Source of the DNA: an uncultured Candidatus Saccharibacteria bacterium
GTDB taxonomy: Bacteria > Patescibacteriota > Minisyncoccia > Phycocordibacterales > Zambryskibacteraceae
Direction of reading: 5' to 3'
Length of the DNA: 64,000 bases
NCBI GenBank assembly: GCA_964357635.1
Contig: CAYHLZ010000001.1
Location: 44,917-108,916 of the forward strand
The position numbers and the translations under genes are program-made. The notes under the pieces were generated by a model. That model searched no databases. It saw only the letters and a list, made by a program, of their open reading frames with translations, and had not been told where the DNA came from. Shown in pieces: positions 6,287 to 32,776 of the stretch. Position 1 is the stretch's first letter; each line of letters starts with the position of its first letter.

Positions 6287-6862
6287 CTAAAAAGGGAGAG
6301 AGAAAGTAAGTTTGTGGTCCTTTGGTTTCTCCCAACCACTCACATCTAATTTAATCTCATTTAAAGCCCCACCTTCTTTAAAAACAAGTTTTTTATTAGT
6401 GAGCGCATATTCATAAAGTTCTTTGGTAAGTCTAACGTCTTCTATACAGTAAGTGCGTACCCTTTCAACGTCTCCCGCCTTCCACCAGTTTATCGCATCA
6501 GCGCCACCACCTAATTTATTTCTACCAAGAGTACCTTCGGCAAGTTGATCTAAGCGCATTCGGCGTCCATAAGAATCTTTTATTTCTTTCAAGATATCTA
6601 AGCTTCTTATTTTTGTTAAGTCTCCTGGGTAGTATTTGTTAAGTAGCGGGATGTCAAAATGGTCAGAATTGAATCCAATAAGCACATCCGCTCTCTCTAT
6701 AATTGGCCAAAGTTTTTTTAACTCCTCTTCTACATATGAAGAGTAAGAGTCTGTATCTGAATCATAGATAGCCACCAAGGCAATATCCAAGAGCGCGGGA
6801 TCATTTTTCCCTACATCAGAAAAAAAGTTCTTAGTCTCTATGTCAAAAACTATTTTACGCAT
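6287..6862 (-). CDS. RNase H-like DEDD-type 3'-5' exonuclease domain protein
   Basis: Motifs IVFDIETKNF (Exo I), FNSDHFDIPLL (Exo II), YCIEDVRLTKELY (Exo III, DEDDy type). Start overlaps stop of upstream hisS-like gene by 8 nt. Confidence 0.55.
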   Translation of the reverse strand: MRKIVFDIETKNFFSDVGKNDPALLDIALVAIYDSDTDSYSSYVEEELKKLWPIIERADVLIGFNSDHFDIPLLNKYYPGDLTKIRSLDILKEIKDSYGRRMRLDQLAEGTLGRNKLGGGADAINWWKAGDVERVRTYCIEDVRLTKELYEYALTNKKLVFKEGGALNEIKLDVSGWEKPKDHKLTFSLPF

Positions 6863-7619
6863 ATGGACCTAGTTTGTGTGTTTCAAGGAAGTCTCGAATA
6901 GTGACATCTCCCATACCAAAACCAACCGCACTTACTGCCGCCACGTCAAACATTTCCAGAAGATTGTCATATCTTCCACCCCCAGCAATAGCTCGGGTAT
7001 TTTCTTTGTTGGCATCAAATATTTCAAAGACCATTCCCGTGTAGTATGTCTGTCCTCTCGCTAGAGTTGAGTCAAAGACAAAATTAGGGCCTATTTCCTT
7101 GAAGTCATCTATGTTGGCATTGTTGATTCTTACTTCAAAATCTTCGTTTCTGGCTCCAAACCCTTTCATTACAGCGCAAGCAAGCGAAAGAATCTCTTTG
7201 TCTCCTTTTACCCCCTCTACACCCAAAAGGTCGCAATTTAGCTGCCAATGTTCTCGCCTTCTTCCTTTCTGCGGTCGTTCATAACGAAACAAATTTGGTA
7301 TAGAGTACCATCGTAATGGAAATTTTAGACTTTTTCTCCTGGCAGCTACCATACGGGCAAGGGTGGGGGTCATTTCTGGGCGTAATGTAACCGACCTGTC
7401 ACCTCTGTCAGTAAAGGTAAATGTTTGTTCGTTTATTATCTCCGCTCCTGATTTTTCAGAATAAATTTCGGTTGGCTCTAAAATTGAGGCGCCATATTCT
7501 ACGTATCCAAAGCTTTCCGAAACCTTTCTCCACGTGTTGAAGATATGGTTCTGGATAGCCATATCCTCAGGATATAAGTCCCTAACACCCTTGTAGGGTC
7601 CTGTATCAAGTTTTGACAT
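6855..7619 (-). CDS. Histidyl-tRNA synthetase-like minimal catalytic core (no anticodon-binding domain, shortened insertion region)
   Basis: Class II aaRS motif 2 FRYERPQKGRRREHWQ and HisRS motif 3 AIAGGGRYDNLLEMFD present. Protein is only 254 aa and ends right after the catalytic core. Confidence 0.7.
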   Translation of the reverse strand: MSKLDTGPYKGVRDLYPEDMAIQNHIFNTWRKVSESFGYVEYGASILEPTEIYSEKSGAEIINEQTFTFTDRGDRSVTLRPEMTPTLARMVAARRKSLKFPLRWYSIPNLFRYERPQKGRRREHWQLNCDLLGVEGVKGDKEILSLACAVMKGFGARNEDFEVRINNANIDDFKEIGPNFVFDSTLARGQTYYTGMVFEIFDANKENTRAIAGGGRYDNLLEMFDVAAVSAVGFGMGDVTIRDFLETHKLGPYA

Positions 7620-30637: not shown

Positions 30638-31066
30638 ATGAAGATAAACATAAAGGCGACGGGGATAGAGCTCACTCCCGCCATCTCAAGTTATGTGGAG
30701 AAAAAGATTTCAGCGATAGAAAAATTTATTGATAAAGCAACGAACGCCACAGCCCTAGTGGAGGTGGGGAAGAGCACACATCACCACAAGAGTGGAGATG
30801 TCTTCCGTGCCGAAGTGCATATTGTTGGTAACGGTCTTGATGTTTATGCCGCATCCGAAACAGGGGACCTGTATGCTGCGATAGACATGGTCAAGGATGA
30901 GGCAGTGCACAACATGTTACAATTGAAGGGTAAACGAGAGACTCTTGCCCGCAAAGGTGCGAGTGTGATGAAAAACATGATCAAGGGTTTCTCCGAGAAT
31001 ACAGCCAAGGGATTTTCTTGGGGCATGGAGCGATTAAAGTTTAAAAATTTTAAGAAAAGACAATGA
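30638..31066 (+). CDS. hpf: Ribosome hibernation promoting factor (RaiA/HPF family)
   Basis: MKINIKATGIELTPAISSYVEKKI...EVHIVGNGLDVYAASETGDLYAAIDMVKD matches YfiA/HPF fold. Confidence 0.8.
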   Translation: MKINIKATGIELTPAISSYVEKKISAIEKFIDKATNATALVEVGKSTHHHKSGDVFRAEVHIVGNGLDVYAASETGDLYAAIDMVKDEAVHNMLQLKGKRETLARKGASVMKNMIKGFSENTAKGFSWGMERLKFKNFKKRQ

Positions 31067-31193
31067 ATTATTTGAAACAAAAAGCGACACCATGGGTTTC
31101 CATCTCTGTTTTGGCTGGAGGATTGTTTACCGCCGTGGTTTTACTTTGGCTCGTTAGGATTGAAGCCGAGCTTCGGGTCACCATTACTAGTGT

Positions 31194-32522
31194 CTAGTTG
31201 CCTCGTAGGAAATCTTGCCAACCCATCTCTCGCTTACCAGCGGGGGTAACGCGGACTGGGACAAACTTACCATCTTTTATCTCGGCATCTTTGACTACTA
31301 ATCTAATTTCTTTCCCACTCTTGTTCCTGAAGAACATGTAGGCCGTTGGCCAAGTACTATACGCCAAGACTTTTCTCAAATTTTTCTCTGCAGATTCGTT
31401 TAGGTCAAGAAGTCCGTCTTCTTTTTTTATTAGTTTGGTAAAACTTACTTTCTTCTCATCCTGTGGTATCTCTTTCACTTCTCCCTCAATCCATTTTGGA
31501 AGTAGAACCCCGAGTATTCTACCGCCAGCACGAGCAAGCTTTTCTTCTACGACAGCATAGTGGTCTGGCCAAGGAGTTATTGGAACTCGTGCCTGCGCCA
31601 ATATTGGTCCGTGGTCCACTTTCTCATCCATTTTAATTATCGTTACCCCCGCTTCTTCTTCTGCAAGAATTGTTTCTTGAATAGGTGAGGCGCCCCGCAA
31701 CTTTGGCAGAAGTGAGGGGTGGACATTGAGCGCACCATATTTTGGAAGAGAGAGAATCTCTTTCGGCAAGATTTTACCGAATGATGCTACCACATAAACA
31801 TCTGCATCTAACTTTTTTAATTTATCTGGAGATGGAATATCTTTTATAGAACTTATATTAAGCACCGGAGAAAGACCAGCCACTTCAAGCTCCTCCAGAA
31901 CATATTTTGAAAATTGAGAACTACCGAAGAAGACAAACTTAACCACCGCTTTTAGCGGGGTCCCGCCAACGGCGGTGACCGCTTTCTTCGGTGGGACATC
32001 TTGGACATTTTCTGCATTATCAATGAAAAGAACGCCATTTAGATGGTCTATCTCGTGCTGGAAAATCTGTGCCAGAAGTTCTGATGCGCCTCGCTCAATA
32101 AGTTTCCCTGTTTCGTTGTAGGCTCTCAAAGTTACTTTATCAGCTCTTTTTACCTGCCCGTAGAGCCAACGTATTGAGAGACAGCCTTCTTCCAACTTCT
32201 CTTTTTTCCTAGAAGTTTTAATTATTTCTGGGTTGATAAATACCAAATCTTTCGTTGTCTGAGGCAGTTTTGGCACTGGTCCGACATTTAAGTTTCTTTT
32301 TTTTGTTAACATCAAAACATCGCCTCGGACGATAAAGAGTCTCAGACTCTCACCAATCTGTGGCGCAGCGAGCGCCACTCCGTCTTCTTCGGCATGGAGC
32401 GATGTGTGCATCTTCTCTAGAAGGCCTTTAATCTTTTTTCCACCAATTTCTTTTAGGGGCACACTCTTAGCCACCTTTCTCAATACAGGCGCATCTTTTT
32501 GTAATATTTCTGTTTTTGTCAT
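31194..32522 (-). CDS. Fused peptide deformylase / methionyl-tRNA formyltransferase
   Basis: N-terminal Def motifs GVALAAPQIG, EGCLSI, HEIDHLNG. C-terminal Fmt motifs VVASFGKILP, NVHPSLLPKLRG, GVTIIKMDEKVDHGPIL plus Fmt C-terminal domain. Confidence 0.8.
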   Translation of the reverse strand: MTKTEILQKDAPVLRKVAKSVPLKEIGGKKIKGLLEKMHTSLHAEEDGVALAAPQIGESLRLFIVRGDVLMLTKKRNLNVGPVPKLPQTTKDLVFINPEIIKTSRKKEKLEEGCLSIRWLYGQVKRADKVTLRAYNETGKLIERGASELLAQIFQHEIDHLNGVLFIDNAENVQDVPPKKAVTAVGGTPLKAVVKFVFFGSSQFSKYVLEELEVAGLSPVLNISSIKDIPSPDKLKKLDADVYVVASFGKILPKEILSLPKYGALNVHPSLLPKLRGASPIQETILAEEEAGVTIIKMDEKVDHGPILAQARVPITPWPDHYAVVEEKLARAGGRILGVLLPKWIEGEVKEIPQDEKKVSFTKLIKKEDGLLDLNESAEKNLRKVLAYSTWPTAYMFFRNKSGKEIRLVVKDAEIKDGKFVPVRVTPAGKREMGWQDFLRGN

Positions 32523-32776
32523 TTGACCTTAAGACTACCGAAGAAACAGCGTGAGAAATTTGCGCTTTGGGAACACTTCTTTAAAAGATATGCCATATCC
32601 TCAACCGAGAGGTGAGAAGTCTTTATGGCTATCACTTTTATAGGGAATTCCTTCATATCCGCCGCCCTTCTTTCTGCATTTATACGTGCATGGAACTCAT
32701 CAAGCATCTTTAGTCTTGGGTGCTTCAAAAGCTCCTTAAGATCATGACTTTTAAGAGCTTCACTAATAGATTTCAT
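32519..32776 (-). CDS. Hypothetical small protein
   Basis: 4-nt overlap with def-fmt start; no motif. Confidence 0.35.
   Translation of the reverse strand: MKSISEALKSHDLKELLKHPRLKMLDEFHARINAERRAADMKEFPIKVIAIKTSHLSVEDMAYLLKKCSQSANFSRCFFGSLKVK

Follow-up and report, generated by a model that had tools for sequence, protein, structure and literature searches.

A def-fmt fusion gene with a minimised formyltransferase half in a Zambryskibacteria-like member of Paceibacteria

Can a single polypeptide serve both steps of the formyl-methionine (fMet) cycle, and does the joining of the two enzymes mean that they are obligatorily coupled? These questions are raised by a 64-kb stretch of contig CAYHLZ010000001.1 (64,000 nucleotides; hereafter the window), in which one open reading frame (ORF), on the minus strand at 31194..32522, encodes a peptide deformylase (Def) followed by a methionyl-tRNA formyltransferase (Fmt). 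The host is a Zambryskibacteria-like member of Paceibacteria (Parcubacteria, within the Patescibacteria or candidate phyla radiation, CPR). We consider it about 80% probable that the product is a bifunctional enzyme of the fMet cycle, with domains that act independently and are made 1:1 following an indel that fused two overlapping genes; we infer the two activities from conservation, selection, and the precedent of a fusion in Exiguobacterium. Because close relatives are unfused and other lineages have fused independently, the covalent link most likely came about as a near-neutral outcome of compaction of the genome, ensuring 1:1 synthesis rather than being mechanistically required.

The fused gene exists as a single reading frame. 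In the ORF listing of the window it runs uninterrupted from an ATG (32520-32522) through 442 codons to a TAG stop (31194-31196). A preliminary description of this DNA had placed Def and Fmt in one 442-aa ORF at these coordinates, without stating the strand; that architecture is borne out by the ORF listing, Pfam profiles, homologs, and further assemblies. Searched against 5.8 billion proteins, the fused product matched 3,930, of which the best 120 (59-100% identity; hereafter the 120 homologs) are without exception fused proteins of 405-467 aa. Each contains both Def and Formyl_trans_N, and nearly all contain Formyl_trans_C. They come from unrelated projects in NCBI, JGI, ENA, and Logan, and are named just “peptide deformylase” of Patescibacteria, Parcubacteria, Zambryskibacteria, or Minisyncoccia. 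Furthermore, the window coding sequence (CDS) is nucleotide-identical in three independent samples and assemblies: ENA ERZ1292624 and ENA ERZ1292619, both from Hainich H41 groundwater (0.1 µm fraction), and Logan ERR3858121. This rules out the initial worry that a sequencing error had masked a stop between the two halves.

Strong purifying selection acts on all three domains. For Def, the Fmt N-domain, and the Fmt C-domain, the ratio of nonsynonymous to synonymous substitution rates (dN/dS) against L084, the closest relative (89% identity), comes to 0.058, 0.077, and 0.112, respectively; comparisons with relatives at 58-68% identity are saturated (dS undefined), and the L084 comparison alone was used. 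Matches to sequences in the PDB divide between peptide deformylases (PDFs) at residues ~4-175 and Fmt chains (4IQF, 3TQQ, 1FMT) at ~213-413. AlphaFold2 (AF2) folds both domains confidently, with a predicted local distance difference test score (pLDDT) of 88 for the window protein and disorder confined to an insert in Def (residues 72-89) and the linker (179-192). The predicted template modelling score (pTM) is 0.61 for this protein and 0.65 for P0002, a homolog whose short junction is confidently modelled as ordered. Neither model supports a defined interdomain interface. The modelling of domain arrangement that had been proposed as a check thus yields no fixed arrangement that could be claimed.

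The N-terminal half is a well-conserved deformylase domain. It spans residues 1-175 (31998..32522, minus strand), as delimited by PF01327, TIGR00079, AF2, Foldseek, and dN/dS. Pep_deformylase PF01327 matches residues 5-173 (E 1e-42; 145.7 bits, cutoff 22.8; profile positions 3-153 of 156), and the domain exceeds the cutoffs of both TIGR00079 (125.4 versus 103.95) and NF001159 (129.7 versus 125). Outside the 72-89 insert its pLDDT is >90, and Foldseek comparisons with PDFs give target-normalised template modelling (TM) scores of 0.75-0.91. The motifs EGCLS and HEIDH, reported earlier within residues ~1-175, are indeed present. Motif II, E112-G-C114-L-S116 (32175..32189, minus strand), has its Cys as metal ligand and is invariant in the 120 homologs. 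Motif III, H156-E157-I-D-H160 (32043..32057, minus strand), supplies two His metal ligands and the catalytic Glu, and H156, E157, D159, and H160 are invariant in the same set. The third reported motif, GxGxAAxQ, is literally absent; the window instead has G48-V-A-L-A-A-P-Q55 (32358..32381, minus strand), with the second Gly replaced by Ala. The protein therefore departs from the consensus G-Phi-G-Phi-A-A-x-Q at the Gly ahead of Phi-A-A, which is Ala (A50). The A-A and Gln of the motif are kept, A50, A52, and P54 are invariant in the 120 homologs, and the same G-x-A-x-A-A-P-Q variant is found in other Paceibacteria-like Defs. A revised form of motif I reads Phi-G-Phi-A-A-x-Q, and an exact match to the motif is not essential for activity (PMC12690207). 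We propose that this half is a metal-dependent deformylase that would deformylate nascent chains, with Cys114, His156, and His160 as putative metal ligands and Glu157 as the putative catalytic base. Between motifs I and II lies a variable insert (residues 67-91; nt ~32250..32324, minus strand), which has 25 residues in the window and 5-26 among the 120 homologs, and which AF2 models as disordered (pLDDT <50).

The C-terminal half keeps the fold and the catalytic residues of Fmt. It occupies residues ~195-442, about 250 aa versus 314 in E. coli, and its numbering is anchored here on E. coli Fmt (1FMT/2FMT sequence) through MAFFT and hidden Markov model (HMM) alignments. The N-terminal catalytic Rossmann-like domain (residues 195-345; 31488..31940, minus strand) is six-stranded, with β3 missing. 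Its strands lie at 196-199, 221-223, 242-245, 264-268, 292-297, and 307-312 in the AF2 model, in the order β1 (196-199), αA (203-214), β2 (221-223), a short helix (232-237), and β4 (242-245). Formyl_trans_N PF00551 matches residues 233-336 (E 7e-29; 101.2 bits, cutoff 26.1; profile positions 73-176 of 181), and Formyl_trans_C PF02911 matches residues 365-412 (E 3e-7; 30.9 bits, cutoff 21.1; profile positions 2-49 of 100). AF2 models the fold of both domains with pLDDT >90 (about 95 for the C-domain), and Foldseek ranks the Fmt structures 4IQF, 1FMT, and 2FMT first (target-normalised TM about 0.70). The catalytic N266-V-H268 (31719..31727, minus strand), where the HPSLLPKLRG motif starts, corresponds to E. 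coli N108/H110, and D303 (31614..31616, minus strand) aligns to E. coli D146. All three catalytic residues are invariant in the 120 homologs, as are S270, L272, P273, R276, and G277 of the SLLPxxRG folate-site motif. Among formyltransferase families, TIGR00460 (fmt) scores best by far, at 174.9 bits versus 95.8 for ArnA; this lies below the TIGR00460 cutoff of 201.5, and profile positions 73-245 of 315 are aligned. With Asn266, His268, and Asp303, this two-domain half would transfer formyl from 10-formyl-tetrahydrofolate to Met-tRNAfMet.

The two halves meet at a junction that is minimal in most fused proteins. In the window it comprises residues 176-194, VPPKKAVTAVGGTPLKAVV (31941..31997, minus strand). 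The preliminary description had correctly located it around 31990-32010 (residue 175 falls at nt 32000) and had noted a short Pro/Lys linker, which is present as PPKK. Much of the junction is a 12-residue lineage-specific insert, AVTAVGGTPLKA (residues 181-192; 31947..31982, minus strand), that AF2 models as disordered (pLDDT <50 at residues 179-192) and that the window shares with P0007, P0010, and P0112. The spacing is 12 residues shorter in 92 of the 120 homologs. The Def tail, ...FIDKAENVQD(I/L)PP, is conserved everywhere, and in the fused genes it is followed by 2-5 residues and then by strand β1 of Fmt (FVFFG). No internal start codon is conserved at the junction across the fused homologs, and L084 has none there at all, so that Fmt can be produced only within the fused chain. 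Internal initiation at a GTG (codon 193 of the window) was considered as a general mechanism and rejected: there is no Shine-Dalgarno-like sequence ahead of it, and no start codon is conserved. In one fused relative (L006, ~6540..6580), a 7-residue insertion, LSADKTG, follows directly after the FFGS of Fmt β1, in a normally invariant turn.

The fusion arose from an operon that is still intact in close relatives. We kept 80 GTDB species-representative loci of 291 relatives found. A single ORF spans both halves just in L001-L007, L009, and L010 (57-67% identity; L002 is cut by a contig end) and in the distant L018. All other loci have two ORFs, including L008, L019, L026, L027, L032, L033, L035, and L037, at 60-66% identity. 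There the fmt ATG, which corresponds to window residues 190-196 in the alignment, overlaps the def stop or directly abuts it: as ATGA in L032, as TAATG in L033, and as TAA, one codon, and an in-frame ATG in L008. L008 is thus a single TAA short of an in-frame fusion. We propose that a small indel in such a tightly coupled def-fmt operon erased the def stop and the fmt start, which would have brought the genes into frame, with Fmt presumably made thereafter only as part of the fused chain. One split locus of Zambryskibacteria departs from the abutting arrangement, with ~480 bp between def and fmt (L037, 6486..6965), reflecting an insertion or rearrangement.

Fusion has occurred more than once. 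A rough neighbour-joining (NJ) tree places the window within an all-fused subclade (with L001 and L003-L007), the sister subclade of which is mixed, containing the fused L009 and L010 together with split members. The junctions of L009 and L010 (PPLSFVFFG and PPSSIVFFG) differ from that of the window, and a further, separate fusion, L018, has a Lys-rich linker. An exhaustive HMMER survey of 1.84 billion 50%-identity representatives, in which the window clade collapses to one (P0085), gave 38 Def-Fmt fusions (373-522 aa) among the best 150 cluster representatives. One of the fused clusters, on contigs of up to 630 kb, is from Candidatus Fermentithermobacillaceae of the Firmicutes, and its only annotation is “methionyl-tRNA formyltransferase”. 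A survey of relatives had been suggested at the outset, and its result is a fused state in 120 of 120 best homologs and in 38 of the 150 best cluster representatives. On this comparison of sequences, the fusion is recurrent and evolutionarily labile. Such a pattern speaks against an obligatory functional coupling and in favour of overlapping genes that fuse readily where genomes are compact. The proposal that the fusion implies obligate stoichiometric coupling of formylation and deformylation is accordingly not supported, since sister genomes at 60-66% identity are split, junctions differ, and unrelated lineages have fused independently; equimolar synthesis is a trivial consequence of fusion.

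Several labels within this survey disagree with the position of the sequences. L056 (JBEBJM010000006.1) is labelled “Nitrospira sp.”, yet its def/fmt/hpf locus is of the Paceibacteria type and groups inside Paceibacteria in the tree, so that the contig has probably been mis-binned. Among third-party annotation entries, many labelled “uncultured Candidatus Saccharibacteria” likewise fall among Paceibacteria.

A number of observations weigh against a bifunctional enzyme of independently acting domains. The Gly-to-Ala change takes Def motif I away from both its classical and its revised consensus. At 174.9 versus 201.5 bits, the Fmt half does not reach the NCBIfam equivalog cutoff, and it is missing the insertion loop and Arg42, both important in E. 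coli for recognising the initiator tRNA (PMC13234167), so that its substrate specificity and, in principle, its activity are uncertain. Both enzymatic activities of the window protein are predictions from sequence and analogy. The orientation of the domains is undefined in AF2 (pTM 0.61-0.65), and the number of fusion events is read from an unsupported NJ tree. Lastly, a second fmt or def may possibly lie elsewhere in the genome, as our search spanned the 64-kb window; within it, tblastn found no second copy of either gene.

The Fmt half has lost part of its tRNA-recognition apparatus. It had been described as a complete Fmt, and the SFGKILP and HPSLLPKLRG motifs named in support are both present, but completeness fails on a net 33-residue deletion, a short C-domain, and the sub-cutoff TIGR00460 score. 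The deletion lies between E. coli P39 and Q81 in the MAFFT alignment, and its site in the window is residues 226-238, IKDIPSPDKLKKL (31809..31847, minus strand), set against E. coli A40-L80. Part of the Arg42 loop, helix αB, and strand β3 are gone; αB and β3 are also absent from the AF2 model, and in the HMM alignment the 16 residues of the insertion loop (E. coli 34-49) have no counterpart in the window protein. All 120 homologs share the deletion. The C-terminal tRNA-binding β-barrel domain (residues 365-442; 31197..31430, minus strand) covers 75 of 106 E. coli positions, and alignments show a shortened C-terminal domain in all Paceibacteria Fmts. The same 33-residue deletion occurs in unfused members of the window clade (L033, L035, L055, and L058). 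By these comparisons the deletion is older than the fusion and independent of it; the clade's Fmt lost part of the Arg42 loop together with αB and β3 before it was joined to Def.

It is a possibility, short of even odds, that the Fmt half is active with a changed specificity and may not tell initiator from elongator Met-tRNA by the 1:72 mismatch. The E. coli enzyme places its insertion loop against the acceptor stem at the C1·A72 mismatch, with Arg42 as a conserved residue for recognition (PMC13234167). Among related loop-bearing Fmts, Arg is kept at this column in 112 of 120 sequences, which indicates that the loop is normally constrained in these lineages and that its loss in all 120 close homologs is a real change. 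Moreover, the loss is recurrent: it is seen in 7 of the 38 fused cluster representatives, in several standalone ones (P0122, P0132, P0164, P0191, P0212, and P0253), and in L060. This suggests that the tRNA-recognition module may have been lost repeatedly and independently. On the other side, the deletion in L033, L035, L055, and L058 means that a Def domain is not needed to compensate for it, and the remaining determinants (the C-domain and linker lysines) may suffice for normal specificity. As far as its sequence indicates, a loop-less Fmt must recognise Met-tRNAfMet by other means. The window's tRNAs comprise tRNA-Asn and two tRNA-Ala only, with no initiator tRNA, and a scan of 24 loci, taken from the deletion clade and from lineages near it, likewise gave only tRNA-Asn or tRNA-Ala.

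More doubtful is the broader proposition that a large Paceibacteria clade and several CPR-like lineages independently run fMet initiation with an Fmt that lacks the Arg42 loop, a feature regarded as the hallmark of initiator-tRNA recognition, which would imply a different, as yet undescribed, selection of Met-tRNAfMet. If true, the options would be other protein determinants, an atypical acceptor stem of the initiator tRNA, or non-discriminating formylation as in animal mitochondria, and in fused lineages the altered selection would act from a polypeptide that also serves as deformylase. The loop-1/αB/β3 module is also missing outside the window clade in L060 (fmt ~6407..7246), P0128, P0141, P0149, P0166, P0174, P0265, P0132, P0164, P0191, P0212, and P0253; some of these Fmts are fused to Def and others stand alone.

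The fusion could also be adaptive, as the preliminary description implied, with the tether fixing a 1:1 ratio or co-localising formylation and deformylation, for example at the ribosome. We regard this as unlikely. The retention of the fusion throughout one subclade (the window, L001, and L003-L007) and in the 120 homologs, its repeated evolution, and a junction that is very short in most members and modelled as ordered would all fit such a role. However, the sister subclade mixes fused and split genes, and operon overlap already couples translation in the split relatives. Nor is channelling expected, since one enzyme works on Met-tRNA ahead of initiation and the other on the nascent chain at the ribosome, separate substrates at separate steps; AF2 also finds no confident interdomain interface (pTM 0.61-0.65).

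It is very improbable that the Fmt half is dead or repurposed, either as a tRNA- or ribosome-binding appendage of Def or for another acceptor, with the true Fmt absent or encoded elsewhere. Such a role would fit the sub-cutoff TIGR00460 score, the lost recognition loop and shortened C-domain, and a structural similarity to the ArnA formyltransferase domain that is just slightly weaker than that to Fmt. Yet the N/H/D triad and SLLPxxRG are invariant, both Fmt domains are under strong purifying selection, TIGR00460 outscores ArnA by 174.9 to 95.8 bits, and the half sits directly after def, in the syntenic position of a bona fide fmt. That a conserved Def is retained implies continuing formylation, and 98.6% of the reference genomes of bacteria carry just one fmt (PMC12690207). 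Finally, an assembly or sequencing error that erased a stop or frameshift between two genes can be dismissed: it is true that close relatives carry def and fmt as two genes whose stop and start fall exactly here, but three independently assembled samples agree on the CDS to the nucleotide, fused homologs from unrelated projects number >120, the reading frame continues through the junction, the closest relative lacks any start codon there, and P0007, P0010, and P0112 share the 12-codon in-frame insert.

The surrounding locus is conserved. Its order is mreB (divergent), an 85-aa ORF, def-fmt, and then convergent hpf, vanY, and tRNA-Asn. Dozens of Paceibacteria genomes have these neighbours on either side of def and fmt; synteny with split def/fmt loci holds for about 70 Paceibacteria genomes, and the Fmt half occupies the orthologous position of fmt, after def. 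The conserved mreB / def-fmt / hpf / vanY synteny marks this as the housekeeping def-fmt locus. The 85-aa ORF (32519..32776, minus strand) ends in a TGA that overlaps the def-fmt ATG (ATGA); it is probably translationally coupled to def-fmt and the first gene of the operon. It has no Pfam match. Copies that are 65-75% identical lie directly upstream of the fused gene in L001 and L003-L007, weak matches occur in L038 and L062, and a gene of 85 aa is called at the same position in L084. A scan for promoters and terminators gave no signal above shuffle expectation.

On the opposite strand lies a 44-aa hydrophobic ORF, MNYLKQKATPWVSISVLAGGLFTAVVLLWLV... (31063..31197, plus strand), which is called in independent assemblies and likewise at the same position in L084. 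It starts in an ATG overlapping the stop codon of hpf (ATGA) and ends in a TAG that, within the palindrome CTAG (31194-31197), overlaps the opposite-strand TAG of def-fmt, such that the convergent genes share 4 bases.

Published as an oddity of one Bacillales genus, the fusion is common and recurrent in uncultivated ultra-small bacteria. By itself it implies no new chemistry, and its novelty is modest; that of the recurrent loss of the Fmt insertion module is greater. Public labels name one half only, either “peptide deformylase” or “methionyl-tRNA formyltransferase”. Consequently, genome surveys will score such CPR genomes as lacking fmt or def. The recurrent fusion is a natural experiment in fusion gain and possibly loss. 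The minimised Fmt offers a direct test of how much Fmt recognition of the initiator tRNA needs, and of whether CPR have relaxed or rewired it; it is also relevant to minimal translation systems and to the engineering of orthogonal initiation.

The closest published counterpart is Exiguobacterium's def-fmt fusion. It was reported in 2025 (Mol Biol Evol) from four reference genomes of this genus as “an unusual case” within a set of 5,042 RefSeq reference genomes; it complemented a delta-def-fmt strain of E. coli, and the same genomes carry a second PDF (PMC12690207). Patescibacteria are unmentioned in that work. Beyond Exiguobacterium, we found no description of such a fusion in CPR, or of naturally loop-less Fmts, in the open-access literature, which is weak evidence of absence. 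Both fusions are single CDSs derived from a def-fmt operon, with Def N-terminal and Fmt C-terminal, and the complementation indicates that this architecture can carry both activities. Exiguobacterium differs in belonging to the Bacillales, and its RefSeq survey set was essentially without CPR metagenome-assembled genomes. It also has a second PDF, whereas the window has none in its 64 kb. The window's Fmt half is truncated. Given the unfused intervening Paceibacteria relatives, the window fusion appears to be independent of that in Exiguobacterium.

The canonical arrangement is that of the E. coli def-fmt operon (Meinnel & Blanquet 1993, as cited in PMC12690207), where def and fmt are juxtaposed in this order and have fMet-cycle roles. 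Split Paceibacteria relatives keep this arrangement at the syntenic locus; the window, in contrast, lacks the def stop and the fmt start and encodes a single polypeptide. Compared with E. coli PDF, the window Def lacks the long C-terminal helix, with ~10 residues between LFID and the Fmt half. E. coli Fmt (1FMT/2FMT) shares the two-domain fold, the catalytic Asn108/His110/Asp146, and SLLPxxRG, but the window has no Arg42, distal half of the 16-residue loop, αB, or β3, and its barrel covers 75 of 106 positions. Standalone Paceibacteria Fmts (280-295 aa; L011, L013, and L047) share the orthologous locus, 40-45% identity, and the shortened C-domain, but they retain the PDKPxGR...PVK loop-1/αB/β3 module and are encoded by separate genes. 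ArnA, the bifunctional formyltransferase-decarboxylase, likewise joins, by natural fusion, a module resembling Fmt to a second enzyme, and it is structurally similar to the Fmt half; it differs in partner domain, substrate (UDP-Ara4N), and domain order, and the window protein scores 95.8 bits against its 777-bit cutoff. The minimised Fmt falls short of the equivalog threshold and lacks the insertion loop; its fold, catalytic apparatus, and orthologous position are all retained. The window protein is thus an independently evolved instance of a published fusion type. What sets it apart is that the junction in its clade has almost no linker, that Def motif I is a variant, and that Fmt is minimised.

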